NCBI GenBank assembly: GCA_026397385.1
Contig: JAPLUY010000058.1
Location: 1 to 55,462 of the forward strand
DNA: 55,462 nt
From: Candidatus Aenigmatarchaeota archaeon
GTDB taxonomy: Archaea; Aenigmatarchaeota; Aenigmatarchaeia; CG10238-14; SCSR01
Direction: 5' to 3'
Positions 4,950-55,462 of the stretch are shown here, in pieces. Under the pieces are notes generated by a model. The model was not told the DNA's origin. It saw only the letters and a program-made list of their open reading frames with translations, and did no database searches. Made by a program: the position numbers and the translations under genes. Numbering within the stretch: the first letter of the stretch is position 1; every line of letters starts with the position of its first letter.

Positions 4950-4970
4950 GCAATCCCCTGAAATAATCTT

Positions 4971-8042: not shown

Positions 8043-8065
8043 AACCTGAAGCGCAATTAAGATAC

Positions 8066-9281: not shown

Positions 9282-9300
9282 GGATAGATTTCGTTTCTTG

Positions 9301-9311
9301 AAGATATAATG
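9301..9311 (-). promoter_or_regulatory. TATA-like box for the eL41-like micro-ORF
   Basis: The minus strand reads CATTATATCTT, centred about 25 nt upstream of ATG 9281. Confidence 0.35.
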
Positions 9312-9363
9312 ATTGCTTACGCGCGGAGGAAATTTTCCAGACGCATTCGCGAAGGAAACGGAC

Positions 9364-9684: not shown

Positions 9685-9712
9685 GTGTTTCACCGCTTAC
9701 GCGTTTCTATTT

Positions 9713-17073: not shown

Positions 17074-20000
17074 TCATTTTATGCTGTCCGCGATATCCTT
17101 GAGGTTCAGGCCGGCGCGCGTGACCTTCGACGGGTCGAGGTTGTCCTCGCCGGGCACGAACTGGACGATGTGCTTGGCGCTGTCGCGCACCGTGCCGTCG
17201 TACTCGACCTTCAGGTCCTGCAGCGCTCCGACGAGCCTGCGTTCCATATAGCCCGAGTGCCTGGTCTTCAGGGATTTGTCCATCAGCGACTCGCGGCTGT
17301 TGATCGCGTCGAAGAAGAACTCGAACGGCGTGAGTCCGTCCTTGAAACCGCGGCCGACGAACCCGCGCGATTCTAGGCTGATGTCGCCGCGCTTGAAGTG
17401 CGGGAACGTGCGATTGAAGTAACCGCGCTCGATACGCTCACCCATGACCATCTCCTGGCCGACCATCGCTGCGGTCTGGACGAGGTTGACGAGGCTTCCA
17501 CGCGAGCCGCTCTTGGCCATCATGAGCGTGAAGCTCTCCTTCGCGTACTTTGCGATGATGTCCTCGACCTCGTCGATCGCCTTGTTCAGGCGCTTCTTGA
17601 TGTGCGCCTCGAGGCTGTCCTTCGCCGTGCGGCCGGGCAGTATCTTGATATCGCCGCGCTCGTATTCTGCGATGAACGCGTCGACGTCCTTCCTGACCTG
17701 GCCGATGGTCTGAGCTATCTCCGTGCGCGCGATCTCCGGCATGTCCTGGTCGGATATGCTGATCGAGAAGGCCGACGTCATCACCATCTGGATGGCCAGG
17801 CGCGTTATGTCGAATATGAACTTCTTCACAATTGTCGGGCCGTAATCCTTCTCAACCTTGTCCAGCACCTTGCCGGTGAACGCGCCTACCGCGGCGCCGT
17901 CTATAGTGCCCTTGAGCAGCTTGCCGTTCTCGATGACCACGTAGGCGTCGTGCTTGCAGTTTGCCTTGATGCAGGTGTCGCATCCCATGCAGGACTTGGC
18001 CTTGTGTTCGATGTTCAGCGTCTTCGGCAGGAAGAGGCTGAAGATTTCCTTTCCGGTCATCGTGCGTTTCGCCGGCAGCTCCATGTCCGTATCAACGGAC
18101 CGTATCATCTGTATGAACTCCTCGCGCTTGAACTCGTGATCGCCGTGCGTCAGCGCATAAAGCCCTGAGACGTAGTCGCGGTGCGCGCCTATGATGGGAC
18201 CGCTGAAGCGCGGGCTGCGTATGTTCTTCTGCACCGCCATGAGCGACCTCGCCTCGGCCTGGGCCTCTTCGGTCTGCGGCACGTGCAGGTTCATCTCGTC
18301 ACCGTCGAAGTCCGCGTTGTAAGGCGGGCACACGGCCACGTTCAGGCGGAACGTGCGGAAAGGCATGACGCGCACGCGGTGAGCCATTATGCTCATCCTG
18401 TGCAGGCTGGGCTGGCGGTTGAAAAGCACTATGTCGCCGTCGTGTATGTGGCGCTCCACTATGAAGCCCGTGTCCAGTTCTGTGGCGATGTCCGTCTTGT
18501 TGAAATCAGTAACCTTCTTCCTGTGGCCGTCCGGGCGTATGACGTAGTTGGCGCCGCCGTTGGTCTCGGAGCCGCTGAGCACTATCGCCTGCAGGTCCGC
18601 CTTGTTGACAGCGTTCACGCGCACCGGCAGCGTCAGTTCCCTGGCGATGCTTTCCGGCACGCCGACCTCGTCGATGTCTATCATCGGGTCAGGGCTGACA
18701 ACGGTGCGCGCGGAGAAGTTGACGCGCTTCCCTGCGAGGTTGCCGCGGAACCTACCCTCCTTGGTCTTCAGCCTCTGAGACAGCGTCTTGAGTATGCGGC
18801 CCGAGCGATGCCTCGCCGGTGGGACGCCCGAGATTTCGTTATCAAAGTAAGTGCTCACGTGGTACTGCAGCAGCTCCCACAGGTCCTCGATGATGAAGTC
18901 TGGCGCGCCGAGGTCTATGTTCTCGCGCAGGCGCTCGTTGATGCGAACGATGTCTACCAGCTTGTGCGTCAGGTCGTCCTCGGAGCGTTCGCCCGTCTCG
19001 AGCGTTATCGACGGCCGGACGGTAACTGGCGAGATCGGCAACAGCGTTATGACCAGCCACTCGGGCCGTATGGTCACGCCGATGGTCTTGAGGTCGTCGT
19101 CCGTCATCTTGGCCAGGCGCTCACGAAGCGCGGCCGCGGTGAGAGTGCCCTTGTCTTCGACGAACGTGTAAGGCTTGATGAACTTGAGCTTCGGCTGCTC
19201 CGAACCGCAGTACGGGCACTTTTTGTGGATGAGCTTCGCCACGTCCTTGATCTTGTACTTCTTCTCCTTCACCGTCTGGATGTCGGCTTCGTCCATAAGC
19301 GCTCGGCTGCAGCTCGCGCAGAAAAGTTTCAACATGCTGAAGAGGAACTTGGCATAATGCACGTGCACGATCGGCCTCGTCATGTCCAGTATGCCGAAGT
19401 GTCCCTGGCACTCGCCAACGCTGCCACCGCACACGCGGCACCGCACGCCCGGGTCGACCACGCCCAACCTGGGATCCATCAGCCCGCCTTCGATCGGATA
19501 GCCTTCCTGGTCATAAAGCTCGGTCTTCGTTATGCGCGCCACGGACATCTTCTTTATCATGTCCGGATTGAGCACGCCGAACTCGATGCGGCTGACGAGC
19601 GCGTCCGACGGGCGGACAACGATCTTCGGATATATCATCATGCTCTTCAGCTCGTCCAGCATCAGCTTGAACGCGTAGCTCATCGAGATGTCCACGACTT
19701 TCGACGCCGTGCATATCGGGCAGTAGCGGCGGTTCTTTATCTTGTCGTAGATCGCTGCGTTACCGCACTCGAGGCATATCGGCACGGTGGTCTTGTCCGA
19801 GTCGAACCTCTCCTTCAGCGTCAGCGCCGCGCCGTGCGCGATCAGGCAGTCCTTCTCCATCTCCCCGAGCCTCAGACCGCCTTCCTTGCTGCGGCCCTCG
19901 GTCGGCTGCTTCGTCAGCAATGCGACAGGCCCGCGCGAGCGCGCGTGTATCTTGTTGGACACCAGATGGTCGAGCTTCTGGTAGAAGCAGCTGCCGATGA

Positions 20001-21438
20001 ATATCTGCGCGTCGAACCGCCTTCCGGTGCGGCCGTCGTACATCGTCTCCTTGCCGTCGTTCTTGTATCCTGCGGCGTGCAGCTCCGAGCGTATCACATC
20101 CTCCTTGATCGCGTTGAACGGAGGGGCGTTGACGATGCGGCCCGCGACCGCGCCCATCTTTCCGCCGATGAACTCGAGCAGCTGCCCCATGGTCATTCGC
20201 GACGGTATGCCGTGAGGGTTGAAAATGACGTCCGGTACGACGCCGTCCTCGGTGAACGGCATGTCCTCGCGCGGGACTATGAGGCCTACGACGCCCTTCT
20301 GCCCGTGGCGGCTGGCGAACTTGTCGCCTATCTCCGGAACCTTCATGTCGCGTATGACGACCTTGATTAGCTTCGTGCCGTCAGTGGTCTCGCTGACGAA
20401 AACGCGGTCGACCACGCCCGTGTCCTCATGGCGGATCTTCACGGAAGTCTCGCGTATGTTCTCTACGCCCGTGATGAACTGGTCCATGGTGCCCAGGAAG
20501 CGCAGCGGCGACACGCGGCCGATCAGGACAGAATCGGAGCCGACGATCGCTTCGGGGTTTATTATGCCGTCCTCGGGCAGGTGCTTGTACATGTCCTCGC
20601 CCGCGTAGCCGCGAACTCCTGGCTCGGGTATGCCGATGATGTCCTCCTGGCCGCCCATGTATCGCTTCTGCTCGGCCTCGTAAGTGCGTGTCATCATGCT
20701 CCAGAACAGCCCGCTTTGGATCGAGCTCTGGTTGATTATAACTGCATCCTCCATGTTGTAGCCGTCGAAACACCCGACCGCAACGATTACGTTCGAGCCG
20801 TTCGGATGGCTGTCGTAGTTTATTATCCTGTGCCCGTGCGTGCGCACCAGCGGCTTCTGGGGATAGACCATTATGTTGGCCTTGGTGTCAACGCGGCTCG
20901 GATAGTTCGTCGCGAAAACTCCTATGCTCTGGCCGACCATCTTCGCTCCGTAGTTGACACGATCGCCACGGTTGTATTCCGTAAAAGGAATGAACGACGC
21001 CGACAGCCCCAGTATGATCGACGGGTCGAGCTCCACGTGCGTGTGATCGGGCATGATATTCTCTGGCTTGAGCGCGATGTACGAGCTTTCCTCCTCGTCC
21101 GTGTCCAGATATTCCACGACGCCGGCCTTTATGAGGTCGGACCAGCTCATCTCGCCCTTCTTTATCTTGGTGGCGATGTCATCGGTCAGCTTCGAGCGGC
21201 CGTTCTCCACGACTATCGCGGGTCTCCTGACCCTGCCCGAATCCGATAAGATGCGTACCTCGCCGAACTGGGGATAGTAGCAGACGTTGACCTGCTCGGA
21301 GAGTTGGCCGCTGCGCCTGTTCCGTTTTATCTCGCTGACCAGACCCGCAAAATCGCCCGTAGCACCGACGTAGTTCCCGTCAAGGAAGACGTCCGTCATT
21401 GCTCCTGTGGCAATTGCATCGTCGGCGTTCTTCGGCAT
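17074..21438 (-). CDS. rpoB1-rpoA1: fused DNA-directed RNA polymerase subunits B' (C-terminal half of Rpo2) and A' (Rpo1N), single 1454-aa ORF
   Basis: The first ~606 aa are RpoB' (ASRHGQKGVVG, Zn ribbon CLECGNAAIYDKIKNRRYCPIC, C-terminal FKLMLDELKSMMIYPKI). The frame continues without a stop into RpoA' (VSRIEFGVLNPDMIKKMSV, CRVCGGSVGECQGHFG, catalytic NADFDGDEMNLH). The junction is at nt 19561..19641. Confidence 0.9.
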   Translation of the reverse strand: MPKNADDAIATGAMTDVFLDGNYVGATGDFAGLVSEIKRNRRSGQLSEQVNVCYYPQFGEVRILSDSGRVRRPAIVVENGRSKLTDDIATKIKKGEMSWSDLIKAGVVEYLDTDEEESSYIALKPENIMPDHTHVELDPSIILGLSASFIPFTEYNRGDRVNYGAKMVGQSIGVFATNYPSRVDTKANIMVYPQKPLVRTHGHRIINYDSHPNGSNVIVAVGCFDGYNMEDAVIINQSSIQSGLFWSMMTRTYEAEQKRYMGGQEDIIGIPEPGVRGYAGEDMYKHLPEDGIINPEAIVGSDSVLIGRVSPLRFLGTMDQFITGVENIRETSVKIRHEDTGVVDRVFVSETTDGTKLIKVVIRDMKVPEIGDKFASRHGQKGVVGLIVPREDMPFTEDGVVPDVIFNPHGIPSRMTMGQLLEFIGGKMGAVAGRIVNAPPFNAIKEDVIRSELHAAGYKNDGKETMYDGRTGRRFDAQIFIGSCFYQKLDHLVSNKIHARSRGPVALLTKQPTEGRSKEGGLRLGEMEKDCLIAHGAALTLKERFDSDKTTVPICLECGNAAIYDKIKNRRYCPICTASKVVDISMSYAFKLMLDELKSMMIYPKIVVRPSDALVSRIEFGVLNPDMIKKMSVARITKTELYDQEGYPIEGGLMDPRLGVVDPGVRCRVCGGSVGECQGHFGILDMTRPIVHVHYAKFLFSMLKLFCASCSRALMDEADIQTVKEKKYKIKDVAKLIHKKCPYCGSEQPKLKFIKPYTFVEDKGTLTAAALRERLAKMTDDDLKTIGVTIRPEWLVITLLPISPVTVRPSITLETGERSEDDLTHKLVDIVRINERLRENIDLGAPDFIIEDLWELLQYHVSTYFDNEISGVPPARHRSGRILKTLSQRLKTKEGRFRGNLAGKRVNFSARTVVSPDPMIDIDEVGVPESIARELTLPVRVNAVNKADLQAIVLSGSETNGGANYVIRPDGHRKKVTDFNKTDIATELDTGFIVERHIHDGDIVLFNRQPSLHRMSIMAHRVRVMPFRTFRLNVAVCPPYNADFDGDEMNLHVPQTEEAQAEARSLMAVQKNIRSPRFSGPIIGAHRDYVSGLYALTHGDHEFKREEFIQMIRSVDTDMELPAKRTMTGKEIFSLFLPKTLNIEHKAKSCMGCDTCIKANCKHDAYVVIENGKLLKGTIDGAAVGAFTGKVLDKVEKDYGPTIVKKFIFDITRLAIQMVMTSAFSISISDQDMPEIARTEIAQTIGQVRKDVDAFIAEYERGDIKILPGRTAKDSLEAHIKKRLNKAIDEVEDIIAKYAKESFTLMMAKSGSRGSLVNLVQTAAMVGQEMVMGERIERGYFNRTFPHFKRGDISLESRGFVGRGFKDGLTPFEFFFDAINSRESLMDKSLKTRHSGYMERRLVGALQDLKVEYDGTVRDSAKHIVQFVPGEDNLDPSKVTRAGLNLKDIADSIK

Positions 21439-21465: not shown

Positions 21466-23049
21466 CTACTTCATCATCTTGTCGGGCGGCACCACGTTCT
21501 TCTTCAGTATCGCCTGGAGTGCCTTGCCCTCCTTCTCGTCCGTTCCCTTGGTGACCTCGGCCATGATGGCGAGGTATTTGCGCAGCCCTATCGTAGCGCC
21601 TTCGGGCGTCTCGCTCGTGCACAGCTTGCCCCAGTGCGTCGGGTGCAGTTCGCGCGCCTCGAAGTGCTCCTGCGTCGACGTCAGCGGCGAGAGCACGTTG
21701 CGCATGTGCGACATCGTCTTGATGAAGCTGCCACGCTCAAGGCGCTGGCTCACACCCGTACGCCCGCCTACCCAGCTGCCGATGGCGAGAGCGGACACGA
21801 GCTGGTTCGTCAGCACGTTCGACTCGACGATCGCCTGCAACGGGGGAACGCGGCCGCGCTTCGTGAGCTTCTGGTAGTTGTACGTTATGCGCGTTATCAG
21901 CCCCCACTTTCCGAGCAGTATCGAGCGGAGGAGTATCTCCATCAGGTCGCCCGACATCCTGAGGCGCTTGTTCGCATAATGGTCCAAATCGTCCTCCTCT
22001 ATCTTTCCCATGTGCAGCTTGATCAGCTTGCCAACGGCCTTCGCAAGGAAGATTGCCTTCTCGAGCCTGTTCGCCGGATCCTGTCCCAGGTGCGGGAGCA
22101 GGTAGCGATCCACCAGGCGCGTGGCGCGCTCGGTGCGGTACTCCTTCTGCGGGATCTTTATGTGAAGACCGATCTTGTCAAGCCCGTCGGCTGCGTTCGC
22201 GACGTCGGCCTCGTACAGGTTCGCATAGAACTCTTCCTGTATCTCAGGGTCGGTCGATATGACGGTGGCTATGTCCTTGTCCTTCTCCAGGCCGAGCGCC
22301 TTCATCAATATGGCGATGGGCAACTTGTTCACGTTAGCGAAGCTGATCGTGATGTTGCCGTTGTTCTTGCGCTCGACTATGTGTCGCTGCACGTAGCCGT
22401 CCTTCTCCGAGTGTATGCGCGCGATCTGGCCAACGCTGCTCGCGGCCACCGAGCTTATAATCGCCTTGTTCTGCGCTATCTCCTCCACTAGCACGAGGAT
22501 GCGCTCGGTACCGTTGACGATGAAGTACCCTCCCGGATCGTCCGGATCCTCGCCCGCTTCCACCAGCTCCTTTCTGTTCATGCCGGCGAGCGGACATATC
22601 TTGCTCTTCAGCATTATCGGCAGGTCGCCGAAGTTCACCCACAGGGTTTCGCCTTCGACGCCGTTCATCACCGGCGACATCTCGACGTACATCGGCGATG
22701 AGTATGTCAGGTTGCGCGTGCGCGCCTCCATCGGCATTACCCTGCGCTCCGAGCCGTCCGCCTCCTTTATCCACGGCCCCCAGTTCTCCTTGCCGATGCG
22801 GAAGTCGCCCAGTTTTATCTTGAAGTCGCCTATCTCGGGGACTTCGGGCTTGATCTCCTTTATCTCGCGCAGGATTTTCGGGATGCGTCGCGTTATAAAA
22901 TCGTCATAAGAGTCAACTTGGAACCTGACAAGCCCGCGTTCCTTGACGAAGGATGTCAGCATCCCGAGGAAGAGCTCGGAATTTCCGGATGCGGACAGCT
23001 CCCATTTGGGGTTGGGCGTTCCGTTTGTCTCTGTGTTCGTATTGCTCAT
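21466..23049 (-). CDS. rpoB2: DNA-directed RNA polymerase subunit B'' (N-terminal half of Rpo2)
   Basis: 527 aa with the typical RpoB N-terminal half (VRFQVDSYDDFI, GYFIVNGTERILV, THWGKLCTSETPEG). Its stop lies 27 nt upstream of the B' start. Confidence 0.95.
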   Translation of the reverse strand: MSNTNTETNGTPNPKWELSASGNSELFLGMLTSFVKERGLVRFQVDSYDDFITRRIPKILREIKEIKPEVPEIGDFKIKLGDFRIGKENWGPWIKEADGSERRVMPMEARTRNLTYSSPMYVEMSPVMNGVEGETLWVNFGDLPIMLKSKICPLAGMNRKELVEAGEDPDDPGGYFIVNGTERILVLVEEIAQNKAIISSVAASSVGQIARIHSEKDGYVQRHIVERKNNGNITISFANVNKLPIAILMKALGLEKDKDIATVISTDPEIQEEFYANLYEADVANAADGLDKIGLHIKIPQKEYRTERATRLVDRYLLPHLGQDPANRLEKAIFLAKAVGKLIKLHMGKIEEDDLDHYANKRLRMSGDLMEILLRSILLGKWGLITRITYNYQKLTKRGRVPPLQAIVESNVLTNQLVSALAIGSWVGGRTGVSQRLERGSFIKTMSHMRNVLSPLTSTQEHFEARELHPTHWGKLCTSETPEGATIGLRKYLAIMAEVTKGTDEKEGKALQAILKKNVVPPDKMMK

Positions 23050-45427: not shown

Positions 45428-47689
45428 TTAAAATAAAAAGCTTGCAAGCACGGCAGCCAAGAGCACCAGCTGCACGAGGCCGTAGGCGTCGAACTCCGGC
45501 AGACTCTTATCCGTGCCCCTCACCGACACCGGCACGCTGAACTGTATCGATGGCTGCGACACCGAAGAGACGACCACGTTCACCGTGGTGGACTGGCGGC
45601 TGACGAGGAGCGTCAGCTTCGCGTATATCTGCTGAACGTCGTTGTTATTCAAGGATTCTGTAGTCTGGGATCCGTCCGTCACCATCACCAAATTGGGGTT
45701 CGTAGGGGTTACGCTCACGCTGTACGTGTCCGTGAGCGTGCCGTTGTTCTTTATGGTTATCAGCAGGTTCTCCTGTTCTCCGAGGGTCGGATTCATCGTG
45801 CTAGGCACGCTGACTTCGAGAGAGCGCGGGTAGAAGTTTATTATGTTCTCGTACTTCGTCGACGGCTGCGCGGTGTCGTACGCGGTGCAGTTCAGTTTGT
45901 TCGCTACCGTGCGCGACCCTCCGGACGCCGGAGCGGTGTTGTATGCCGGGGCGTTAATCGTGCATCCGCCTCCTCCGGCCGGGCCGGTGTACGGGAACGG
46001 GTTGCAGTTCTGCGCGTCGTTGAGCGTGCATTTGACGCTGACCGAAATCCCTCCGGAGTATTCAGTCACCCAGTTCACATTCAGCTGGTTGGTTTTTGTC
46101 AGGAACGAAAACGACGTGAAGCGCATAGCTTGTGGCATGGTTGTTGTAGTGGTGCTTGGCGCGATGGTGGTTGTAGTAGTGGTGCTCGTAGTAGTTGTGG
46201 TTGTAGTTGGTATGCTCTGGTAGTCGGCCAGCACTTCGGCCGCGGTCAAGGCTCTTCCGAAAATCTTAACTTCATCAAGCGTGCCGTTGAAATTCCTGGA
46301 ATACGCCCTCCACTGTCCGATGTTCAGGTTGGTGGCGGTATTTATAGAGCTTGTGCGCGTCCTCGTCGTGGACGTCACTAGGGCACCATTTTTGTATCCT
46401 TTTATCTGCGGGCTCGTAGCTGCTCCGTCGTCTACTGTTATAGCCACATAAGTCCATCCGGTATTCCTCATATCGCCCAGCGATATGCTGTCGTAACCAG
46501 TATCGCGCCCATCGCTAATATCGAACACTAGATTGTTTCCGGGCGCGGAATCTCCAAGGCCGGTGTAAGCCAACCAGAAGCCAAGCTTCGCAGCAGTGCC
46601 GCCGGTCCAGTCGCTGCTGTTGCTTTTGTCCATTATCGCGGTGTAGACCTCTGAGTTGAATCCTCCGTTTACCCAAAATGCGATAGTGAACGCCCCGGAG
46701 CTTAGGTTCAGGATCGCGCTTTTTCCACAGTCCATGTAGTCGTTCACGCCGTCGAACCTGAGACAGCTACCGGACTTGCAGTTCGCGCCGGTAGCCCATC
46801 CGCTCGTCGAATTACCGGCAATGTTCATGTTCGTGAGCGTTCCAGTGTTGCCGCTGCCTGACGAGTCCGCCGCGGTCGCATATCCGCTGCCGTCGTCTAG
46901 CTTCCAATACGCAATCGTGCCTGATGGGAGAGTTGTTGTCGTGGTTGTTGTGACGATTGTTGTGGTCGTAGTTGACATGCTCTGATAATCTGCCAGCACC
47001 TCGGCTGCGCTCAAGACGCTGTTATAGATTTTCACCTCGTCGATTGTTCCGTTGAAATAGTAACTTGCTCCCAAACGTCCCATGTAGACAGTGCTTCCTG
47101 CGGTTCCAGAATGAGATGTTCCATCGCATTGTGCGAGGGGCTGGTCAACTCCGTTTATGTAAATCTTGTTATTTCCTGTGTAATTCCCGTTGAAAAACAC
47201 TAAAGTGACATAGGCCCACTTCGTGTTGATTGCCGACAGGTCCGTCATCCCATAAGAGTCGCCTGCCCCTGTGTTAAAGCCCATGCAACTCGCGGCTTCT
47301 ATCCAAAAATCGTAGGTGTTTCCTATGTTGATTGGTATTTGGTTCGTCTTGCCATTCCAATACATCCAGAAGCTGACAGTGTTGTAGTTTCCGGCGGTGA
47401 TATTAAGAGGGATGCTTGCGGCTGAGATGTAATCGTTCACGCCGTCGAACCTGAGACAGCTACCGGACTTGCAATTCGACGGGCTTTGCCAACCGCTCGT
47501 AGCGTTGCCGGTCGTGCTCATGTTCCTCAGCGTTGCGGTATAGCCGTTGCCCGACGAGTCCGCTGCGGTCGATCCGCTCCCATCGTCGAACTTCCAATAG
47601 ACAAGCGGGCTTGCCGCACTGGCGCCCCTAGGCAGCGAGGAAAGAGCTACTAGGAAAACCAAAACCAAAACAACCTTCCGGATTTCCAT
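45428..47689 (-). CDS. large surface protein with two LamG/concanavalin-like domains, poly-Thr linkers and C-terminal TM anchor (753 aa)
   Basis: It has a signal peptide (VLVLVFLVALSSLPRGASA). The module YWK.DDGSG..A.DSSG.G.T.TL.NM...GN.TSGW....NCKSGSCLRFDGVNDY ... GT(I/L)DEVKI. is duplicated. Poly-Thr runs (TTTTTIVTTTTTTT and TTTTTTTSTTTTTT) and a C-terminal hydrophobic helix are present. Confidence 0.8.
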   Translation of the reverse strand: MEIRKVVLVLVFLVALSSLPRGASAASPLVYWKFDDGSGSTAADSSGNGYTATLRNMSTTGNATSGWQSPSNCKSGSCLRFDGVNDYISAASIPLNITAGNYNTVSFWMYWNGKTNQIPINIGNTYDFWIEAASCMGFNTGAGDSYGMTDLSAINTKWAYVTLVFFNGNYTGNNKIYINGVDQPLAQCDGTSHSGTAGSTVYMGRLGASYYFNGTIDEVKIYNSVLSAAEVLADYQSMSTTTTTIVTTTTTTTLPSGTIAYWKLDDGSGYATAADSSGSGNTGTLTNMNIAGNSTSGWATGANCKSGSCLRFDGVNDYMDCGKSAILNLSSGAFTIAFWVNGGFNSEVYTAIMDKSNSSDWTGGTAAKLGFWLAYTGLGDSAPGNNLVFDISDGRDTGYDSISLGDMRNTGWTYVAITVDDGAATSPQIKGYKNGALVTSTTRTRTSSINTATNLNIGQWRAYSRNFNGTLDEVKIFGRALTAAEVLADYQSIPTTTTTTTSTTTTTTIAPSTTTTTMPQAMRFTSFSFLTKTNQLNVNWVTEYSGGISVSVKCTLNDAQNCNPFPYTGPAGGGGCTINAPAYNTAPASGGSRTVANKLNCTAYDTAQPSTKYENIINFYPRSLEVSVPSTMNPTLGEQENLLITIKNNGTLTDTYSVSVTPTNPNLVMVTDGSQTTESLNNNDVQQIYAKLTLLVSRQSTTVNVVVSSVSQPSIQFSVPVSVRGTDKSLPEFDAYGLVQLVLLAAVLASFLF

Positions 47690-47711: not shown

Positions 47712-48140
47712 TTATTTAATCGAACGCGGCCGGCCGGCCCTCAGGAGCTCGAACGATTTCAGGCAGGCGGCCGTCCTGAAATCCACGTCCATCGTTTTAA
47801 TCTCGACCGGACTCGCCCATACGTGCGGCACGCGTATGCTTTCATCGGGAGAGTCTGCGGAAAAATTGTAGACAACTTCGACGACACCGCCGCGCCTCGC
47901 GACGAAGCTGCCTGTATATTCGACCGGAACGTCACGGCTGCTCGTAAACCCGTCGAGCGTCCTTCGCATGGTGTCGTCAAGGCTGCCGTTTAGGTTTCCA
48001 TCGAACTCCTTGGAAGGGAACCCCATACATCCGCTCTCATCGGGACCTACCAGAAGCATGCGGCCGGCATTCTTCATAGCGAAAACGATTACGGAGACTA
48101 GCTTCGTATCCCCGAGCGCACGCTTCCTGGCCGCCTTCAT
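47712..48140 (-). CDS. hypothetical protein (~143 aa) upstream of the LamG surface gene
   Basis: ATG at 48140 lies about 26 nt downstream of a TTAAATA box (48163-48169, minus strand), which suggests a leaderless start. Its stop is 22 nt from the start of the 753-aa gene. No family recognised. Confidence 0.45.
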   Translation of the reverse strand: MKAARKRALGDTKLVSVIVFAMKNAGRMLLVGPDESGCMGFPSKEFDGNLNGSLDDTMRRTLDGFTSSRDVPVEYTGSFVARRGGVVEVVYNFSADSPDESIRVPHVWASPVEIKTMDVDFRTAACLKSFELLRAGRPRSIK

Positions 48141-48264
48141 CAAATTTTGTTCGCTCCGGCGTGTATTTAACGGACCGCCACCACTTGCGGTGGTGAAATG
48201 TGGACATGCTGCAACTTTCCAAGGTCGTATAACGTTATCAGCCTCTGTTCTGCAAATCAGAGTT

Positions 48265-48633
48265 ATGAGCGGGGACAAGAGGGGCACGGTCGAGCGCACC
48301 AAGGGATACCTTACGAAGCCGTCGACGCACTTCGGCGTTTACGCTGCTGGGTGGGGCGCGCTGATCGGCGGTAGCGGAGGGCTAGTGAAAGGAGCGTACG
48401 ACGCACTTTATGCGGAAGGCCCGTTGATAATAGCGGACGCGCTCAGAGGGTCGTGGCAGGATGCGGCTTATCACCTCGGAGTGGCCGCTGGCAGGGCTTT
48501 CGCGACCTCCGCGGCTTTCGCGGAAGCTAGCGCTTTCGTTGGGTACGCAGGCGGTTCGCTCATGACCGAACGCGCCCTCGGTTACGCTTCGTCATTTTCC
48601 AGATGGATTTTCGGGGATTCGAATCATGGCTAG
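48265..48633 (+). CDS. hypothetical Gly/Ala-rich protein (122 aa)
   Basis: ATG at 48265 within longer ORF 47968..48633. It has glycine-zipper-like segments (AAGWGALIGGSGGLVKGA) and is transcribed divergently from 47712..48140. Confidence 0.45.
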   Translation: MSGDKRGTVERTKGYLTKPSTHFGVYAAGWGALIGGSGGLVKGAYDALYAEGPLIIADALRGSWQDAAYHLGVAAGRAFATSAAFAEASAFVGYAGGSLMTERALGYASSFSRWIFGDSNHG

Positions 48634-48940
48634 ATGTTTGGAGGTGGAGATTGTGAATGGACAAGGTACTGATAACAACAACGGTTCCGCCAGTTCGGCA
48701 TATCCACGTGCGGAAGGACCCGTGTCGCACGGATGGTTCTCGTTGGGGCAGGGCCGCGGGATCAAGTGGACTCTGTGGAAGACTAGCGTGACCTTCCAGC
48801 GTCAGGAAAAGCAGGGTGACAGATGGATAGCGCTCGAGGAACTGCACGTCGCGCCTAAAGTGCTGAAGGAGATGGTCTGGCGCATACCGGGCTGGCTCGA
48901 GACGGTCGAGCGTAGCGAAGAAAGCGTAGGTAAGAAGTGA
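48626..48940 (+). CDS. hypothetical protein (104 aa)
   Basis: It overlaps the previous ORF by 8 nt and sits in the same operon as the TrmB-like regulator. No family recognised. Confidence 0.4.
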   Translation: MARCLEVEIVNGQGTDNNNGSASSAYPRAEGPVSHGWFSLGQGRGIKWTLWKTSVTFQRQEKQGDRWIALEELHVAPKVLKEMVWRIPGWLETVERSEESVGKK

Positions 48941-48962: not shown

Positions 48963-49955
48963 ATGGACAGGTTTATAAGAAACGGCCGACAGGAATTAAT
49001 TCATAGGGAGACCGGCCGCTTCTTCCTCAACGAGCGCATGCGTTTGCGCGTCTCGGACAGCCGGTTCCTTGGCATCGAGAACATCGAGAGCGATGACGAC
49101 GGCCGCAAAGGGAAAGCCGGGAGTGACGGTACGGTGAACCGAGAGGAAATCCTGCGCACGCTCGCCAGCTGCGGGCTGAGCGAGTACGAATCCAAGGCGT
49201 ACGCTTCGCTCGTTTTCATCGGCCCGTCGAGGGCTGGCGCGATCAGCCGCGAGTCGAACGTGCCGCAGTCTAAGATATACGAAATCCTTGACCAGCTGAT
49301 GGACAAGCAGATGGTCGAGATGTTCGACGGCCGGCCCAAGGAATTCAAGGCTGTCGCGCCAGGCGTGGCTCTGAAGAACCTCCTCGAGGAGCGCACGCAC
49401 GAGCTCGACGCGCTGAAGGGCAAAGTCGGGGTCATCGGCGACTTCCTCAAGCCGACGAAGCCGACCGAGGTGCTGGGCGGCATCTGGACGATCAAGGGCG
49501 AGAAGTTCAAGGAGTTCTTCAACAAGGCCGCGGAGATGATGAACCGCAGCGAGCGGTACGTATACGCCATAACGCGCGACTTTTCGCGCACGGCATCGCT
49601 TGCGGACGCATTGCACAAGGCGAAGAAGCGCGGCGTGAAGGTGCGCGTGATAGGCATGGAACATGTTAACGAGCAGAACTACTACAAGGCAAGATGGTAC
49701 ACTGACCACGGCATAGACGTGCGCGTTTTCGAGACTGCCGTGCATCCGAGGATGCTCGTCGCCGACGGAAAGGAGATACTTCTTCGGTTGGACTACGACC
49801 CCGGCAAGCGCAACGGCTTCTTCTTCAGCTCGATGTGGTCGGAAGACGCCTCGCTCGTGGCCGTGATCGACAGCTACGTGAAGAACATGTGGGAGAACGC
49901 CGAATCACTGGACATCAAGAAAGTAAAGCCGCCCGAGGCGGCTCAGGCTGCGTGA
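48963..49955 (+). CDS. TrmB-like transcriptional regulator with N-terminal extension (330 aa)
   Basis: The winged helix LASCGLSEYESKAYASLVFIGPSRAGAISRESNVPQSKIYEILDQLMDKQMV is typical of TrmB, and a C-terminal TrmB-C-like domain is present. The first ~55 aa are an unassigned extension. Confidence 0.75.
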   Translation: MDRFIRNGRQELIHRETGRFFLNERMRLRVSDSRFLGIENIESDDDGRKGKAGSDGTVNREEILRTLASCGLSEYESKAYASLVFIGPSRAGAISRESNVPQSKIYEILDQLMDKQMVEMFDGRPKEFKAVAPGVALKNLLEERTHELDALKGKVGVIGDFLKPTKPTEVLGGIWTIKGEKFKEFFNKAAEMMNRSERYVYAITRDFSRTASLADALHKAKKRGVKVRVIGMEHVNEQNYYKARWYTDHGIDVRVFETAVHPRMLVADGKEILLRLDYDPGKRNGFFFSSMWSEDASLVAVIDSYVKNMWENAESLDIKKVKPPEAAQAA

Positions 49956-49958: not shown

Positions 49959-51452
49959 TTATACGGCCATCAGTTCTATTATCGGTTTGTTCGTGGTGGA
50001 GTTCGTATCCACATGGCGCACCTGCACGCTGTAGCTGCCTTTCGAAAGCCTCAGCGAGCCGCTGATGTCGATGTTGTCATAGGGCACAAGCAAAGTCAGC
50101 TTGTCGTTCGCGACGCTGGTCACTAACACGTCGTCGAACTTCGTCTGGCCAGCGGGATTTGAAAGAACTATTGATGGTGTCATCTTGGCTGTTATCGTCT
50201 GCGTGCCTGTCGCGAGCAGCTTCTTGGCGCTGGTCTCGTACAGCGCCGCTATCTCGCTAGTGGAGAGCGAGCGGTTGAAAATCATGACCTCGTCGATGGT
50301 GCCGTTGACAGCTCCTCCTCCGTAAAGCGTGTTTGACACGCGCAGGACCGTATGGCCATAGTTAATCTGGCTGAAGAGTTCGTTACTTCTCGTCTGCACG
50401 CCGTCCACATATATCCTAATTCCAAAAGTGCTGTTGTCGAAGGTTCCTACAATATGATGCCATTGGTTCCAACCGATTGTGGATATAGACGTGGTTCCGA
50501 CCTGGCCTTCGTTATTGTTTATCTGGAAAAGGGGGTAGCCGTCCGAAGAAACTTCCAGCGTGTATCCTGTCCATTTGGCCAGCACTATGTGCCTAGTTCC
50601 GTCAGAGCTTAGATTGACCCACGCGGAAACCGATATGCTGGCTGGTTCCAGAGAATTCGAATGGACCATTTCGACATAGTCGTTATATCCATCGAACCTT
50701 AGGCAGTTCCCGGATTTGCAGCTTTCATCGCTCTGCCAGCCGCTCGTCGCGTTGCCGGTGGTGTTCATCAGCGTCAGGGTGCCGTTGTTGCGGTTGCCGC
50801 TCCAGTCGTACGCCATGTTGCCGTTCCCTTCGTCCATGGTCCAGTAGCCTACAAGGCTCTCCGGGTTGGTCGGCAGAGCGAAGACCTGCCCGCCCGTTGT
50901 GCCGCTGATATTGGCTATCGTAGCGCTGAATTGCCAGTTTGCAATCGAGCTCGTGATGTTATGGTATGACGTGCCGTTCGTTATCGAATAAGCGCCTGAT
51001 GAGGCTACAGCCTGGCCTGACATGTTTGTCCACGCGGGTGTGGCCTTAGCACCGTCTGCGTATGAGCCGAAGTATTCCGCGAACTCCAGTCCGCGCTCTA
51101 TGTGCGCGATTCCCTTCGTGCCAGACAAATCCAAGGCCTCGGTCGGCGTGTATTCGAAGTACATCCAGTCATTCGTCGTGTCGGTTCGCATCATGCCGTC
51201 GGTTATAGTTATCGGAACGACCCTCCTCGAACCGTCCGGCTCCGATGCCACCTCCTTGACGGCGGCGTCCACGGTGGCGAGCGTGTTGAACTCGTCGTTG
51301 ATCACAGCCGTGTCCCTCGCACGGTTGAAAGTCGGTGTAACGACCGTCAGCGTAAGACCCAGAGCGACGACTGTGAGAAGCGTCACGAGGACCGTGGCAA
51401 TCAGCGGGCTGACGGCTTTCCTGCCAAGACGATCATCGCAATCATTAGCCAT
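49959..51452 (-). CDS. type IV pilin-like (class III signal peptide) protein fused to a LamG/concanavalin-like domain, paralogue 3 (497 aa)
   Basis: N-terminus LGRKAVSPLIATVLVTLLTVVALGL (DUF1628/archaeal pilin-like). The LamG module is YWTMDEGNGNMAYDWSGNRNNGTLTLMNTTGNATSGWQSDESCKSGNCLRFDGYNDY...GTIDEVMIFNRSLS. Confidence 0.8.
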   Translation of the reverse strand: MANDCDDRLGRKAVSPLIATVLVTLLTVVALGLTLTVVTPTFNRARDTAVINDEFNTLATVDAAVKEVASEPDGSRRVVPITITDGMMRTDTTNDWMYFEYTPTEALDLSGTKGIAHIERGLEFAEYFGSYADGAKATPAWTNMSGQAVASSGAYSITNGTSYHNITSSIANWQFSATIANISGTTGGQVFALPTNPESLVGYWTMDEGNGNMAYDWSGNRNNGTLTLMNTTGNATSGWQSDESCKSGNCLRFDGYNDYVEMVHSNSLEPASISVSAWVNLSSDGTRHIVLAKWTGYTLEVSSDGYPLFQINNNEGQVGTTSISTIGWNQWHHIVGTFDNSTFGIRIYVDGVQTRSNELFSQINYGHTVLRVSNTLYGGGAVNGTIDEVMIFNRSLSTSEIAALYETSAKKLLATGTQTITAKMTPSIVLSNPAGQTKFDDVLVTSVANDKLTLLVPYDNIDISGSLRLSKGSYSVQVRHVDTNSTTNKPIIELMAV

Positions 51453-51499
51453 ATAATTAATTCGTGCCCGATAAGAATATCCGAGCCTGTACGTCGGGA

Positions 51500-52981
51500 C
51501 TATGCTTCCTTTATTTGGAGTGTCTGTTTGTTCGAAATCGCGTTTATGCCCATGTTCGTTATCTCTATCTGCTGCTGGCCTCTGGCCGCGCGCATCGAGC
51601 CGTTGATGTCTATGCCGTTGTAAGGTACCAGCAATGTTATGTCGCCGTTTCCGCTAGAGACCGTGACGTCGTCGAAGCTAGTCTGACCGGACGGGCTGGA
51701 CAGGACTATGCTAACGTTCGTGGCTGGCGTGATGCTCTGCGTGCCGGTTGCGAAAAGCTTCTTCGTGCTGGTCTCGTAGAGCGCATTCATTTCGTTGGCT
51801 GAAAGCGAACGGTTGAAAAGCATCACCTCGTCGATGGTGCCGTTGAAATAATCGGAACTTGTCCCAGATGTCGAGAGTCCGATTTTGGTAGGCTGTGTGT
51901 TGCTGGAACCTATCGAGAAAGTGGCTGTCCCTATCTGCGCACCGTTTTTATAGAAAATCGCATGGGTGCCATTAGTTACGACGCCCACATGCTGCCATTG
52001 GTCCGGAGTGGTCGCATTCGAAATGCAGTACGACCAAGAACATGTGACAGAGCTTAAAAGGCAGAATTTGCTGGTCGAACTGTACAACATGTAGTTATAG
52101 TTGCCGCAATCGTTTGAAGCTTTTGTCAAAAGCCCAGCCTCAGCGGGCTGGTTGGAAAGCGGGTATATCCACATCGAAATGGCCAAGTTTCCTGTGATGT
52201 TTGGGGCGTTGCTTATGTTGACATAGTCGTTCACACCGTCGAACATCAGGCAGCTGCTGCCTCCCTTACAGTTAGCGGAGGATTGCCAGCCGCTCGTCGC
52301 GTTGCCGGTGGTGTTCATGCTCGTCAGCGTGCCCGTATTGTTTCTGCCGGAATAGTCGTATGATATCCCGCCCGAACCTTCGTCGAGCGTCCAGTAGCCG
52401 ATCAAGCTCTCCAGGTTCGTCGGCAGGGCGAAGACCTCGCCTTTCGACACGGCGGACACGTTCGTTATCGTAGCGCTGAAATGCCAGTTCTGCAGCGTTC
52501 CCGACACGTTGTGGTACGCTGCGCCGTTCTGGCCGGAATAAGCCGAATCGGTTATCGCCCACTGCCCAGAGACGTTCTTCCATGCTGGCGCGGCATTCGA
52601 GCCTGTTACGTACCAGTTGAAGTAGTCGGCGAACTTGAGGCCGCTTTCGACGTATATGCCGCCTTTCGTGCCTCCTATATCCAGGCCGTTGGTCGGCTCG
52701 TACGTATAGTACAGCCAGTCGTACGTGCTGTTAGTGCCGTACACGCCGTCCGACACGGAAAGCGACACGGTGCGCTTGGAGCCGGTCGACTCGGAAGCCA
52801 CTCCCTTGATGGTGGCATCCAGCTTCTGCATGTTCTGGAACGCATCCGACAGCGTCGACGTACTCCTGGCCGAGTCGAAGGTCGGCCCTAGAGCAATCAC
52901 GGTCAAGGTGAGTGCGGTGACGGCAACAAGCGTGATGAGCACGTACGCTATCATCGAGCTTACGGCCTTGCGTCCCGGCAT
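51500..52981 (-). CDS. type IV pilin-like protein fused to a LamG/concanavalin-like domain, paralogue 2 (493 aa)
   Basis: N-terminus MPGRKAVSSMIAYVLITLVAVTAL. It has the same domain order as 49959..51452 and 53019..54524 and shares long conserved blocks with them. Confidence 0.8.
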   Translation of the reverse strand: MPGRKAVSSMIAYVLITLVAVTALTLTVIALGPTFDSARSTSTLSDAFQNMQKLDATIKGVASESTGSKRTVSLSVSDGVYGTNSTYDWLYYTYEPTNGLDIGGTKGGIYVESGLKFADYFNWYVTGSNAAPAWKNVSGQWAITDSAYSGQNGAAYHNVSGTLQNWHFSATITNVSAVSKGEVFALPTNLESLIGYWTLDEGSGGISYDYSGRNNTGTLTSMNTTGNATSGWQSSANCKGGSSCLMFDGVNDYVNISNAPNITGNLAISMWIYPLSNQPAEAGLLTKASNDCGNYNYMLYSSTSKFCLLSSVTCSWSYCISNATTPDQWQHVGVVTNGTHAIFYKNGAQIGTATFSIGSSNTQPTKIGLSTSGTSSDYFNGTIDEVMLFNRSLSANEMNALYETSTKKLFATGTQSITPATNVSIVLSSPSGQTSFDDVTVSSGNGDITLLVPYNGIDINGSMRAARGQQQIEITNMGINAISNKQTLQIKEA

Positions 52982-53018
52982 ATTATCTAATTATGCCCCG
53001 TTAAAATTATCCTCGCGG

Positions 53019-54524
53019 CTACTGCGCGGTTATCTGCACGGTTGTCCTGCCTGTGGTCGCGTTGACTCCCATGTTGCGCAGCGTCAACTGGTACTCGCCC
53101 CTGGACGCGCGCAACGTGCCGTTTATGTCTACGTCCGAAAGCGGCACTACGAAAGTCAGCCTCTGCGAGCCGTCCGTGACCTCCACGTTGTCGAACGTCG
53201 TCTTGCCGAATGGGGCAGACAGGACTATCGCCGGATTGGCCACCTTCGATGCTATCGATTGCGAGCCGCCCGCTCCGGAGATTTTCTTCGTGCTGGTCTC
53301 GTACAGCGCCGCTATCTCGCTAGTAGAGAGCGAACGGTTGAAAATCATCACCTCGTCGATGGTGCCGTTGAAATAATTGCCTGTCGAACGCCTGCCTATC
53401 GCCGCCTCATCGATAGTCCAAGTCCAATAATTATTCGCATCGGTGGTCGTTATATTGGCGCCATTAAGCCAAAGATTTGGGTTGCCATTTATATCATAGA
53501 CGACAATTACATTATTCCAAACATCGTTGACGAAAACGCTGTTCACGTTGAATGTGGGTTTTGTGTTGTCAGCGGACCCGACTCTGGTGATGAAGTAATT
53601 CGTCGCACCGCTGACATAGAAACCCAATCCGATTTTTGAATCATAATGGCCGAAAACAATCTGGTTGCCGTTTGCGAATGAGCCTTTGACCCATACCGAA
53701 ATGGTCGCTGGAGTAGAAGGTAAATCGTTATCCAAAGCGTTTCCCAAACTGATGTAGTCATTCACCCCGTCGAACTTCAGACAGCTCCCGGACTTGCAGT
53801 CGGTGGAGTTCCAGCCGCTCGTCGCGTTGCCGGTGGTGTTCATGTTCGTCAGCGTGCCGTTGTTGCGGTTTCCGGAATAGTCATAGTCAACGCTTCCGTT
53901 CCCTTCGTCCATCGTCCAGTAACCGATGAGACTTTCAGGATTTGTAGGCAGCACGAACACCTTTCCGCCTGCGCTGCCGGACACGTTGCTTATCGTCGCG
54001 CTGAACTTCCAGTTCGTTATGGATCCGGAGATGTTGTGGTACGTGGTGCCGTTAATGCCTACGTATCTGTAGTCGGAAGTGCCCCAAGCGCCCGACATAT
54101 TCTTCCATCCCACAGCGGACGAACCCGAACCACTCGCGTACGAGTCGAACCAGTCCGCGAACTTGAGCCCCTGGCGCACGAGGACATTGCCCTTCTGGCC
54201 TGAGAGCTGCGTGGGTTCAGAAGGGTCTAGCTCGAAGTAGAGCCAGTCGTACGTGCTGTTCGTGCGGTACGTCCCGCTTGAGACCGACAGAGACACCGTT
54301 CTAGTCGAGCCCTGCGCCTCCGATGCGACGTCGTTGACCGCAGTCCTAAGTACCTCTAGGGTCTGAAAAGCGTCGTTCACTACAGACGTGTCCTGCGCGC
54401 GATTGAACATCGGGCTCACGGCGCCGAGTATTATCGCGAGCATGGTCACTCCGAAGAGGATAGTGAAAACCATTTCTATGAAGGGGCTTATTGCTTTCTC
54501 GCCGGGCACCGCTGCGGCCGTCAT
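53019..54524 (-). CDS. type IV pilin-like protein fused to a LamG/concanavalin-like domain, paralogue 1 (501 aa)
   Basis: N-terminus PGEKAISPFIEMVFTILFGVTMLAIILG. The LamG module is YWTMDEGNGSVDYDYSGNRNNGTLTNMNTTGNATSGWNSTDCKSGSCLKFDGVNDY...GTIDEVMIFNRSLS. Confidence 0.8.
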   Translation of the reverse strand: MTAAAVPGEKAISPFIEMVFTILFGVTMLAIILGAVSPMFNRAQDTSVVNDAFQTLEVLRTAVNDVASEAQGSTRTVSLSVSSGTYRTNSTYDWLYFELDPSEPTQLSGQKGNVLVRQGLKFADWFDSYASGSGSSAVGWKNMSGAWGTSDYRYVGINGTTYHNISGSITNWKFSATISNVSGSAGGKVFVLPTNPESLIGYWTMDEGNGSVDYDYSGNRNNGTLTNMNTTGNATSGWNSTDCKSGSCLKFDGVNDYISLGNALDNDLPSTPATISVWVKGSFANGNQIVFGHYDSKIGLGFYVSGATNYFITRVGSADNTKPTFNVNSVFVNDVWNNVIVVYDINGNPNLWLNGANITTTDANNYWTWTIDEAAIGRRSTGNYFNGTIDEVMIFNRSLSTSEIAALYETSTKKISGAGGSQSIASKVANPAIVLSAPFGKTTFDNVEVTDGSQRLTFVVPLSDVDINGTLRASRGEYQLTLRNMGVNATTGRTTVQITAQ

Positions 54525-54581
54525 ATAACTAGATTCGGCCGTCGCGGTAATAACTTTTCCATCGACGAGAGGATGGCTCGC

Positions 54582-55220
54582 TCAGCTGAGTGTGATGTAC
54601 TTCTGGTACTGGCTGACATGGCTGGCGCTCGCTCCCGCCAGCGCTACGTAGAAGAAGCCCGTGTAGGTGTCCTGTTTCTTCTTTGTCGTTATCTGTATCG
54701 TGTACTTCGTCGCCGCTCCCCCAGGGATGTTATAGGTAACGTTCATCAGATACGTGTCGCCCGGTTTCATGTCGAAAGTCGTGGCCCAGAAGTCGTTGTT
54801 CGCGACGCTGGAGTTCGAGCCCGTCTGACCGTTCACCTCCAGCGAGGCGTTAATCGGCGACCCGAGAGAGTTAAAAGTCGTGACGCGCAGCGCCTTAAGC
54901 GTCTGGTTGGCGACAGTTCCTACGAAGAGCGTGTCCAGGCTCATAGCCCTTCCCGACATCTCGGTACGAGCGAAACCGGCGAAGTCCACGATGTTCGCCG
55001 TGATGTTGCCAGGAGCGTTCGCGGACATGTCCATGGTCGCGTTGAACTCGTTCAGGACGTTGTCGAAAATCTCCGATTCCAGCGTTGACTTCATGACGTT
55101 CTCCTGCTCAACGGATGCAGGCGAAGACATGCTGAAACCTAGCACGACTAGCACCGCCACTATGACTACCGCAGCTATCAGGAACATCTGGCCCTTGCGG
55201 CCCGGCATGAACGCAAACAT
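54582..55220 (-). CDS. small type IV pilin-like protein (class III signal peptide; ~212 aa)
   Basis: ATG at 55220, one nt after the upstream stop. MFAFMPGRKGQMFLIAAVVIVAVLVVLGF has the KGQ-plus-hydrophobic-helix signature of archaeal pilins/archaellins. Confidence 0.65.
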   Translation of the reverse strand: MFAFMPGRKGQMFLIAAVVIVAVLVVLGFSMSSPASVEQENVMKSTLESEIFDNVLNEFNATMDMSANAPGNITANIVDFAGFARTEMSGRAMSLDTLFVGTVANQTLKALRVTTFNSLGSPINASLEVNGQTGSNSSVANNDFWATTFDMKPGDTYLMNVTYNIPGGAATKYTIQITTKKKQDTYTGFFYVALAGASASHVSQYQKYITLS

Positions 55221-55221
55221 T

Positions 55222-55462
55222 TCAGTCGAACCCCCATAAATATACGCGTACCTCCCTCGGACTGTAGCTGCCGGACCACCCCGCAACGATGTAGCCGACC
55301 GTCACCACGCTGCTAGCGCCTGCCGAAGGCACGGGCAGTTCCGTTGTGTTGGTCGTCGAGTTGAACACCGCCACGCCGAGGTTTAAAGTGCTCGGGATGT
55401 ACGCCTGCAGCTCCGTGCGTATGGCCGTAGCGTTGTTGTCCACAGCGTTCTCTCTAAGGTCG
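55222..55462 (-). CDS. 3' end of a further surface-module gene (partial, continues beyond window)
   Basis: The frame is open to the window edge. The C-terminus ...NSTTNTTELPVPSAGASSVVTVGYIVAGW... carries sequons and is tightly coupled to the downstream pilin-like gene. Confidence 0.45.
   Translation of the reverse strand, partial: DLRENAVDNNATAIRTELQAYIPSTLNLGVAVFNSTTNTTELPVPSAGASSVVTVGYIVAGWSGSYSPREVRVYLWGFD

Follow-up and report, generated by a model that had tools for sequence, protein, structure and literature searches.

Pilin-like LamG proteins with exchangeable cores in a conserved gene cassette of Aenigmarchaeota

In Streptococcus sanguinis, the pilin PilC carries a lectin module resembling concanavalin A (ConA) and forms a tip adhesion complex together with the small pilin PilA and the vWA pilin PilB (PMC9934059, PMC8179133). 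A published survey of such modular pilins used the bacterial motif IPR012902 and reported them only from bacteria (Raynaud et al. 2021; PMC8179133, PMC9934059). For archaea, the main text of the description of pilin sets by Makarova, Koonin, and Albers (2016; PMC4858521) mentions neither LamG nor DPANN. We analyzed a complete contig of 55,462 bp from a Candidatus Aenigmarchaeota metagenome-assembled genome (MAG) (JAPLUY010000058.1, referred to as the window), the end of which encodes three consecutive paralogues that combine a pilin-like N terminus with a LamG domain, referred to here as LamG pilins. The source archaeon, a member of the Aenigmarchaeota (DPANN), is tiny and probably host-dependent. 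Our preferred reading, to which we assign a rough probability of 0.6, is that the LamG pilins are modular type IV pilin-like surface glycoproteins acting as adhesins of a pilus-like fiber.

By analogy, the closest functional parallel to the LamG pilins would be the bacterial modular pilin. As in PilC and PilB of S. sanguinis, a class III signal and pilin helix carry an extra binding module that is not specific to pili; the lectin module of PilC belongs to the same ConA/LamG-like superfamily; and the genes are grouped with those of small minor pilins. The LamG pilins differ in having the archaeal [KR][GA](V/I/L)SP signature, without the bacterial N-methylation motif, and in a lectin core that is hypervariable and exchangeable. 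Whereas the bacterial module is a C-terminal graft joined through a linker, the module of the LamG pilins sits inside the pilin head, with the pilin strands resuming after it. Bacterial modular pilins are modeled as tip adhesins (PMC9934059, PMC8179133).

Archaeal pilin sets offer a second comparison (PMC4858521). In them, too, several class III-signal proteins of different sizes are encoded together, and their companions are a candidate adhesin that is large and secreted and an "S-layer-like" protein anchored by a transmembrane segment at its C terminus; the binding proteins of the Sulfolobus bindosome likewise have class III signals. In contrast to these sets, the Aenigmarchaeota cassette described below lacks an ATPase/TadC in cis in 12 of 12 loci, and no member of it reaches a curated archaeal pilin model. 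The only named fimbrial family matched in NCBIfam was TafC of the haloarchaeal Tat-fimbriae (Tafi; NF052521; PMC11821415), with which the LamG pilins share a LamG-type domain (E values of 6e-7 to 1e-11). We rejected membership in this family, as the scores of 29 to 45 bits compare to a cut-off of 410 and come from the LamG part only (profile positions 149 to 370 of 373); moreover, Tafi use the twin-arginine pathway, whereas the LamG pilins have class III-type N termini.

The three LamG-pilin genes occupy the minus strand up to the vicinity of the contig end, and the array reads, in order of transcription, p130 (3' end), p200, and the three paralogues (Table 1). An initial annotation of the window had described three consecutive co-oriented paralogues of ~500 aa, preceded on the same strand by a KGQ-type pilin-like protein of 212 aa and a gene truncated by the edge; all are present, the latter two being p200 and p130. 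The spacers between the paralogue genes measure 37 to 57 nt, the pairwise identity of their products is 45 to 47%, and p200 starts two bases past the p130 stop. Paralogue 1 is identical to NCBI protein P0027 (related proteins and loci are cited by our P and L numbers), which is annotated simply as "LamG domain-containing protein," a name also given to the other paralogues.

The charged leader at the start of each paralogue is short and has K-A as its last residues; (V/I)S(P/S)xI and ~25 hydrophobic residues come next. Of 41 full-length family members, 40 have the pattern [KR][GA][VIL]S[PS]xI plus a hydrophobic stretch, always equally far from the start, and the sole member without it is a 5'-shortened gene call. 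A stringent six-frame scan for motifs of this kind across the whole window returned three matches, all within the pilin array region; the remaining LamG-pilin paralogue fails the scan solely through a Glu in its helix. The AlphaFold2 model of paralogue 2, built from an alignment of 41 sequences, has a single helix at residues 9 to 62 followed by an all-beta region, with a mean predicted local distance difference test (pLDDT) of 88 and a predicted template modeling score (pTM) of 0.84. At 54 residues, this helix is about twice as long as a membrane span. The class III-type N terminus with a long helix proposed in the initial annotation is therefore retained. Among 23 N-terminal regions, 15 matched DUF7289 at weak-to-moderate strength (best E value, 5.5e-8).

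Among 1.84 billion cluster representatives, a profile built from residues 1 to 192 gave 984 matches, many of them only 150 to 170 aa long and some of them very large proteins beginning with the same module. Relatives of 160 aa that lack LamG (P0139 and P0141 to P0144) align to the LamG pilins at both ends: their residues 1 to 110 correspond to LamG-pilin residues ~5 to 115 (E values of 1e-18 to 1e-30), and their last ~55 residues correspond to residues ~437 to 497 (E values of 1e-5 to 1e-10). Because these relatives match only the first ~110 and the last ~55 residues, and do so collinearly, the alignments show that a LamG pilin is a ~160-aa pilin with a ~325-aa insertion in its head rather than one extended by a C-terminal graft. 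The underlying small pilin combines the charged leader and the [KR][GA] processing site with a hydrophobic alpha-1 helix and a small head of beta strands. What has been inserted is the second half of what had been described as a 150-aa domain of unknown family, the LamG module, and the first part of what had been called a C-terminal beta domain. Of the linear chain of four modules in the initial annotation, the N-terminal helix, the LamG module, and the beta-structured C terminus stand; the two flanking domains are not independent and are instead, on these alignments, halves of one split pilin. Both forms can occur side by side, as in L092, where one 160-aa copy directly follows a LamG-bearing copy in the same cassette position, and in L094, where a second array has a 160-aa copy arranged in the same way.

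Variants of the scaffold were also recovered. Two tandem LamG modules are present on the pilin scaffold of P0019, P0022, and P0035 (715 to 724 aa), P0018 (629 aa) has an extra domain of ~130 aa before LamG, and P0040 (582 aa) has a dockerin-like Asp-rich repeat inside LamG. In every case, the N- and C-terminal parts that enclose the extra inserts are the same. In GTDB species representatives, matches over the full length were confined to Aenigmatarchaeota/Aenigmarchaeota or to records labeled "uncultured archaeon," and matches elsewhere covered only the LamG part. In P0075, a bacterial-type pilin N terminus (G/QSLIEILV, with predicted cleavage before Q) is fused to LamG; its JGI annotation is pseudopilin PulG.

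The identity of the inserted module is clear from profile and fold comparisons. Pfam Laminin_G_3 (PF13385) matched paralogues 1, 2, and 3 with E values of 1.7e-20, 3.1e-22, and 1.9e-25, respectively, at 74 to 90 bits (cut-off, 27.6 bits) and over the whole profile. Foldseek with the model of paralogue 2 retrieved LamG-type jelly rolls (E values of 5e-11 to 1e-9), including the Hc N-domains of tetanus and botulinum toxins, carbohydrate-binding domain 4 of the arabinanase AbnA, and lectin domains of trypanosomal sialidases. A sequence-profile search of the PDB agrees, with 4qvs, an "S-layer domain-containing protein," as the top match (E value, 1e-20, LamG part only). Each paralogue thus carries the LamG module ascribed to it. 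The initial annotation had also counted five copies of the module in the last 10 kb, two of them in the 753-aa surface protein at 45428..47689, and a tblastn search of all LamG modules against the window returned exactly these five copies and zero fragments. The 753-aa protein, which does not resemble a pilin, displays this type of LamG from another kind of anchor; a 49-nt block is 90 to 96% identical between both of its modules and paralogue 1. Based on family membership only, the LamG pilins may bind carbohydrate or protein ligands.

A surface location was indicated by N-glycosylation sequons, which number 2.4 to 3.0 per 100 aa in the LamG pilins versus 0 to 0.3 in six cytoplasmic proteins encoded on the same contig; at nine positions, a sequon is shared by 70% or more of the family. 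This density implies that the LamG pilins are extracellular glycoproteins, in line with the surface system first envisaged for this region.

Identity along the LamG pilins is distributed very unevenly. Across the family, sliding identity falls to 13 to 28% in residues 261 to 380 (~120 aa), compared to 47 to 83% elsewhere, and the same is true among the paralogues of the window. The identity of the scaffold and that of this core are uncorrelated (r = -0.02). Among the closest scaffold pairs, with N-terminal parts at least 80% identical, the cores are unrelated (15 to 31% identity) in 10 of 11, and these 10 include orthologues of two of the three window genes. These pairs and two individual cases document replacement directly. 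Loci L001 and L010, which come from different samples and were each confirmed by an independent assembly, have zero DNA mismatches from 9702 to ~13400 (3.7 kb) save for a block of 515 bp (10662-11176) that corresponds to codons 221 to 392 of the first LamG pilin, within which their identity is 37 to 52%. Conversely, the core of paralogue 1 (residues 259 to 398) shares 90 to 97% nucleotide identity with that of P0015 in L012, whereas the flanks share 52 to 73%, and by its scaffold P0015 falls into the lineage of the paralogue found at the opposite end of the array. The breakpoints fall in strongly conserved flanks, MNTTGNATSGW...FDGVNDY and FNGTIDEVMIFNRSLS, and these flank sequences are conserved at the DNA level as well among the five LamG modules of the window. 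Recombination in the conserved flanks replaces the LamG core as a cassette, from strain to strain as well as from one paralogous scaffold to another, and the "interchangeable lectin heads" of the initial annotation have a concrete counterpart in the L001/L010 block and in the core shared by paralogue 1 and P0015.

The simplest reading of core exchange is homologous recombination within a population-wide pool of alleles. Since cores are replaced as cassettes, each strain would display its own set of putative binding heads on constant stalks. In Neisseria pilE/pilS gene conversion and in the PilV tips of the R64 shufflon, a constant pilin scaffold is likewise combined with interchangeable segments that alter binding or antigenicity. 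Set against these systems, the window has no silent cassettes or inverted repeats, no recombinase was seen, and what is exchanged is the central part of a LamG fold. Giant proteins with LamG modules were also considered as a reservoir of cores; no match was found in 94 loci, in which only small parts of the giant genes are covered.

The LamG pilins belong to a cassette that recurs in the same order and orientation, with the pilins last, in 12 Aenigmarchaeota loci (L001, L003, L007, L008, L009, L010, L013, L014, L017, L018, L019, and L092). The order is a CARDB or giant secreted protein, a Big-domain protein, p390, p130, p200, and one to three pilins. The first gene encodes a CARDB protein of ~600 aa, which is replaced by a giant protein of 5,156 aa in L092 and of 7,804 aa in L003; the latter has LamG and DUF2341 domains, and the end of its gene is immediately upstream of the cassette. 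The second protein (590 to 760 aa) has Big domains and a C-terminal transmembrane anchor, and the third, p390, begins with a hydrophobic helix and can, depending on the genome, carry a LamG of its own, as in the p390-family proteins P0062 and P0077. Complete orthologues of p130 are 127 to 140 aa long; they begin with KG(S/T)xYxxE(A/S)A(L/I)A, after which comes a hydrophobic helix. In p200, KGQ(M/V)FL(I/L) precedes the helix, and the window copy reads KG/QMFLIAAVVIV, a class III-type site with predicted cleavage before Q; the p200 orthologue in L008 matched DUF7261 weakly (E value, 0.002). Class III-type N termini are therefore present in three cassette members, namely p130, p200, and the pilins. 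The triplication of the LamG pilins appears to be old, because L008 also has three of them, with their N-terminal sequence types in the same order as in the window.

Table 1. Positions of the pilin array, its variable cores, and adjoining genes in the window
Feature	Position	Strand	Description
p130, 3' end	55223..55462	-	79 C-terminal codons plus stop; 5' part missing at the contig end
p200	54582..55220	-	212 aa from first ATG; NCBI call of 208 aa, starting MPGRKGQMFLIAA
LamG-pilin paralogue 1	53019..54524	-	501 aa; leader MTAAAVPGEKA, then ISPFIEMVF..., with Glu in helix; LamG at residues 252-405
Core of paralogue 1	53361..53741	-	91% protein identity to core of P0015 (L012); scaffold only 56-58%
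LamG-pilin paralogue 2	51500..52981	-	493 aa; leader MPGRKA, then VSSMIAYVL...; LamG at residues 248-397; structure-modeled paralogue
Core of paralogue 2	51836..52210	-	86% identical to orthologue P0002; at most 27% to all other family members
LamG-pilin paralogue 3	49959..51452	-	497 aa; leader MANDCDDRLGRKA, then VSPLIATVL...; LamG at residues 254-402
Core of paralogue 3	50298..50663	-	no relative above 32% identity, though scaffold orthologue P0026 is 82-85% identical
TrmB-type regulator with PLD-like domain	48963..49955	+	convergent with the pilin array; assigned by Pfam
753-aa LamG surface protein	45428..47689	-	Sec-type signal, two LamG modules, Thr-rich linkers, C-terminal hydrophobic anchor

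Several features accompany the cassette or its members. The TrmB/PLD regulator is a conserved downstream neighbor in six related loci, and two small conserved proteins always lie beside it (47968-48940 on the plus strand of the window, 16444-17132 in L001, and 13076-13951 in L003), one of ~100 aa with the motif PEGPVSHGWFSLGQGRGIKWTLWKTSVTFQR and one Gly/Ala-rich protein of ~122 to 145 aa. Between or beside the pilin paralogues are nucleotidyltransferase/HEPN-like pairs in L001 (11610-12185 and 13816-14795) and PemK/MazE toxin-antitoxin pairs in L009 (13475-14094) and L092 (9314-9902); an indel of ~1.1 kb separates L001 from L010 at a site of this kind. In one Aenigmarchaeota lineage, a solitary LamG pilin of 480 aa, P0043, is found inside the ribosomal protein cluster, where it is flanked by the L30 and S5 genes but encoded on the other strand (L005, 10001-11443; L006, 276-1718); the remaining cassette is absent there. 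Two loci from Aenigmatarchaeota GTDB representatives, L022 and L026, contain at least 10 to 14 consecutive LamG-like segments in tblastn searches, which suggests giant multi-LamG surface proteins. In the window itself, AT-rich 8- to 10-mers (aaaagttatta, ataatttta, and gatattctta) lie ~25 to 40 nt upstream of each LamG-pilin start, in spacers 54525-54581, 52982-53018, and 51453-51499 on the minus strand, amid surroundings of ~55% GC; they could represent archaeal TATA boxes, one for each gene, with leaders that would be very short.

If the LamG pilins work as we propose, a prepilin peptidase would remove the charged leader at the [KR][GA] site, and an ATPase/platform module encoded elsewhere would extract the helix from the membrane. 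The LamG pilins would then be assembled, along with p130, p200, and perhaps p390, into a type IV pilus-like fiber, where they would sit at the tip or sparsely along its length because of their ~500-aa bulk. The LamG module would face outward and bind a glycan or protein on a surface or on a host cell, and exchange of the core would alter specificity or antigenicity.

A number of results weigh against this proposal. The N-terminal regions do not reach the curated archaeal pilin models: DUF1628 (PF07790, Pilin_N), the family suggested in the initial annotation, gave no match, DUF7289 being matched instead, and the archaellin/pilin N-terminal model TIGR02537 scored 15.9 bits on paralogue 3 (E value, 0.0068), under its cut-off of 20. 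When residues 1 to 192 were modeled alone with AlphaFold2, the result was poor (pLDDT, 67.7; pTM, 0.36), and a Foldseek search with this model matched no solved pilin (best E value, 2.5); we attribute both the poor model and the lack of a structural neighbor of the isolated fragment to the splitting of the pilin head by the insertion. The best pilin-like match to the N-terminal region in a PDB sequence-profile search was 7txi, an archaeal flagellin-like chain, with an E value of 2.2. At ~500 aa, the proteins are too bulky for a filament shaft, and we assume that they are placed at the tip or are scarce in the fiber. Neither the LamG search of the window nor the LamG sequences outside pilin genes in 94 loci yielded a donor of the exchanged cores.

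The genes for pilus assembly are a further point on this side. In agreement with the initial annotation, neither an assembly ATPase nor a platform protein nor a prepilin peptidase turned up when 37 open reading frames (ORFs), among them the large ORFs of the contig, were scanned with Pfam; the scans did identify translation, transcription, and tRNA-processing genes. That annotation had also pointed to the sequence beyond position 55462 as a place to look for assembly genes, of which there is none, since this position is the contig end. The genes listed in the 10-kb flanks of the cassette in the 12 related loci include neither an ATPase nor a platform gene, and a Walker-A scan of related loci found type IV ATPases solely beside bacterial LamG proteins, with PilB/PilT-like genes in two bacterial loci only and signal recognition particle (SRP) GTPases as the only hits in archaeal loci. 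The missing ATPase and platform genes weaken the pilus reading, yet their absence nearby is not unusual, because archaeal pilin sets reportedly have an evolutionary course separate from that of the ATPase/TadC module, and the two are often encoded at different places (PMC4858521). Homologues of FlaI and FlaJ have been reported in most Aenigmarchaeota MAGs, according to one published statement (PMC8407114).

Other searches for a link to characterized pilins were also negative. Foldseek with the full-length model of paralogue 2 included no solved pilin among its matches because the LamG domain dominates them. A PDB sequence-profile search with p200 gave nothing significant, and hhalign of the LamG-pilin N-terminal region against p200 produced an alignment confined to the 19-residue signal region. 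A literature search for a link of DUF7289, DUF7261, and DUF7262 to known pilus loci found no paper naming these families.

Whether the pilin-like features serve a fiber at all can be questioned. The main rival, which we consider less likely, is surface display without a fiber, in which the helix, processed or not, would only anchor LamG, either in the membrane or within a bindosome-like layer or short pseudopilus. The size of ~500 aa and the lack of assembly genes in cis in the 12 loci and the window would fit such an arrangement, as would the company of anchored or secreted CARDB/Big-domain surface proteins and the precedent of the Sulfolobus bindosome, with its class III-signal sugar-binding proteins (PMC4858521). 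However, the same scaffold occurs at 150 to 170 aa, an ordinary pilin size, in the same arrays, and the cassette contains three kinds of class III-type proteins in the manner of a pilin set; the distance from an ATPase is, as noted above, common among archaeal pilin sets. It is unlikely that the proteins are plain secreted or S-layer-associated glycoproteins, or glycan-active enzymes, with an N-terminal signal anchor that resembles a pilin only superficially. The NCBI name says nothing beyond the LamG domain, the S-layer protein 4qvs is the best PDB sequence match through its LamG part, and carbohydrate-binding and sialidase lectin domains are among the fold matches, but the constant position of the motif in nearly all members, a helix about twice the length of a membrane span, and homology to ~160-aa pilin-sized proteins and DUF7289 speak against this reading, and no catalytic family was matched in the Pfam scan.

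For the mosaic cores, the alternatives to homologous cassette exchange are chimeras of metagenome assembly or the products of a diversity-generating retroelement (DGR) or a shufflon, all of which we regard as very improbable. Metagenome assemblies are the source of all the data, and conserved flanks could mislead assemblers; against this, loci were recovered identically in independent JGI and ENA assemblies (L001/L002, L003/L004, and L010/L011), more than 40 proteins, drawn from NCBI, JGI, ENA, and Logan, show the pattern, and every variant has an open frame and a full-length Laminin_G_3 match. A DGR origin was rejected: the Pfam scans of the large ORFs in the window found no reverse transcriptase, there is no template-like repeat, and cores of only 13 to 28% identity differ at most positions, beyond adenine-templated sites. 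For a shufflon or silent-cassette origin, no sign was seen within this contig, which contains no meaningful inverted repeats flanking the modules, no silent copies, and no extra LamG fragments.

Outside the array, some other features of the contig deserve mention. The 753-aa two-LamG protein (45428-47689) ends in ...DKSLPEFDAYGLVQLVLLAAVLASFLF, a tail also found in its homologues in L001 and L003, which we take to resemble a PEF-CTERM-type archaeosortase sorting signal; an NCBIfam scan of the isolated tail gave no match. A single ORF of 1,454 aa at 17074-21438 on the minus strand joins B' (Rpb2 domains 4 to 7, residues 17 to 607) to A' (Rpb1 domains 1 to 5, residues 615 to 1433) with no stop or start codon at the junction (...MIYPKIVVRPSDALVSRIEFGVLNPDMIKKMSV...), and represents an in-frame rpoB'-rpoA' fusion unless the assembly or the sequencing is in error; the B'' (21466-23049) and A'' (15891-17069) genes of RNA polymerase are separate. 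The GC content drops to 0.38 to 0.46 in 2001-6000 and 8001-10000, versus 0.54 to 0.61 elsewhere. These stretches include ORFs without a Pfam match (2432-3037, 3807-4739, and 8152-9054) and adjoin a thermosome ORF (1033-2298) that covers only profile positions 1 to 323 of 490, and they may be foreign or inserted DNA.

Literature searches found no mechanism of host recognition in Aenigmarchaeota, and full-text searches combining the phylum with pilin, LamG, or pili did not turn up a description of the LamG-pilin family. Cell-surface structures have been raised as possible mediators of host contact, by inference only, in an Aenigmarchaeota genomics paper (PMC8407114). The wholesale swapping of the core between strains and copies suggests a fast-changing attachment device. 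We hold tentatively the more specific possibility that this is a dedicated, phylum-specific attachment cassette, in which LamG heads at the pilus tip, with cores exchanged through the population, would serve host or substrate recognition in these DPANN archaea with dynamics resembling antigenic variation. If true, this would be the first example from archaea of a pilin head that accommodates a lectin module, and the identity of the LamG core would predict the host range or niche of a strain. The cassette provides concrete, clonable candidate attachment proteins, with a constant stalk and a sharply bounded variable head. Proteins annotated only by their LamG domain are placed in a pilin superfamily of at least 984 cluster representatives, and the modular pilin principle, documented so far for bacteria, is extended to archaea and to an insertion topology.

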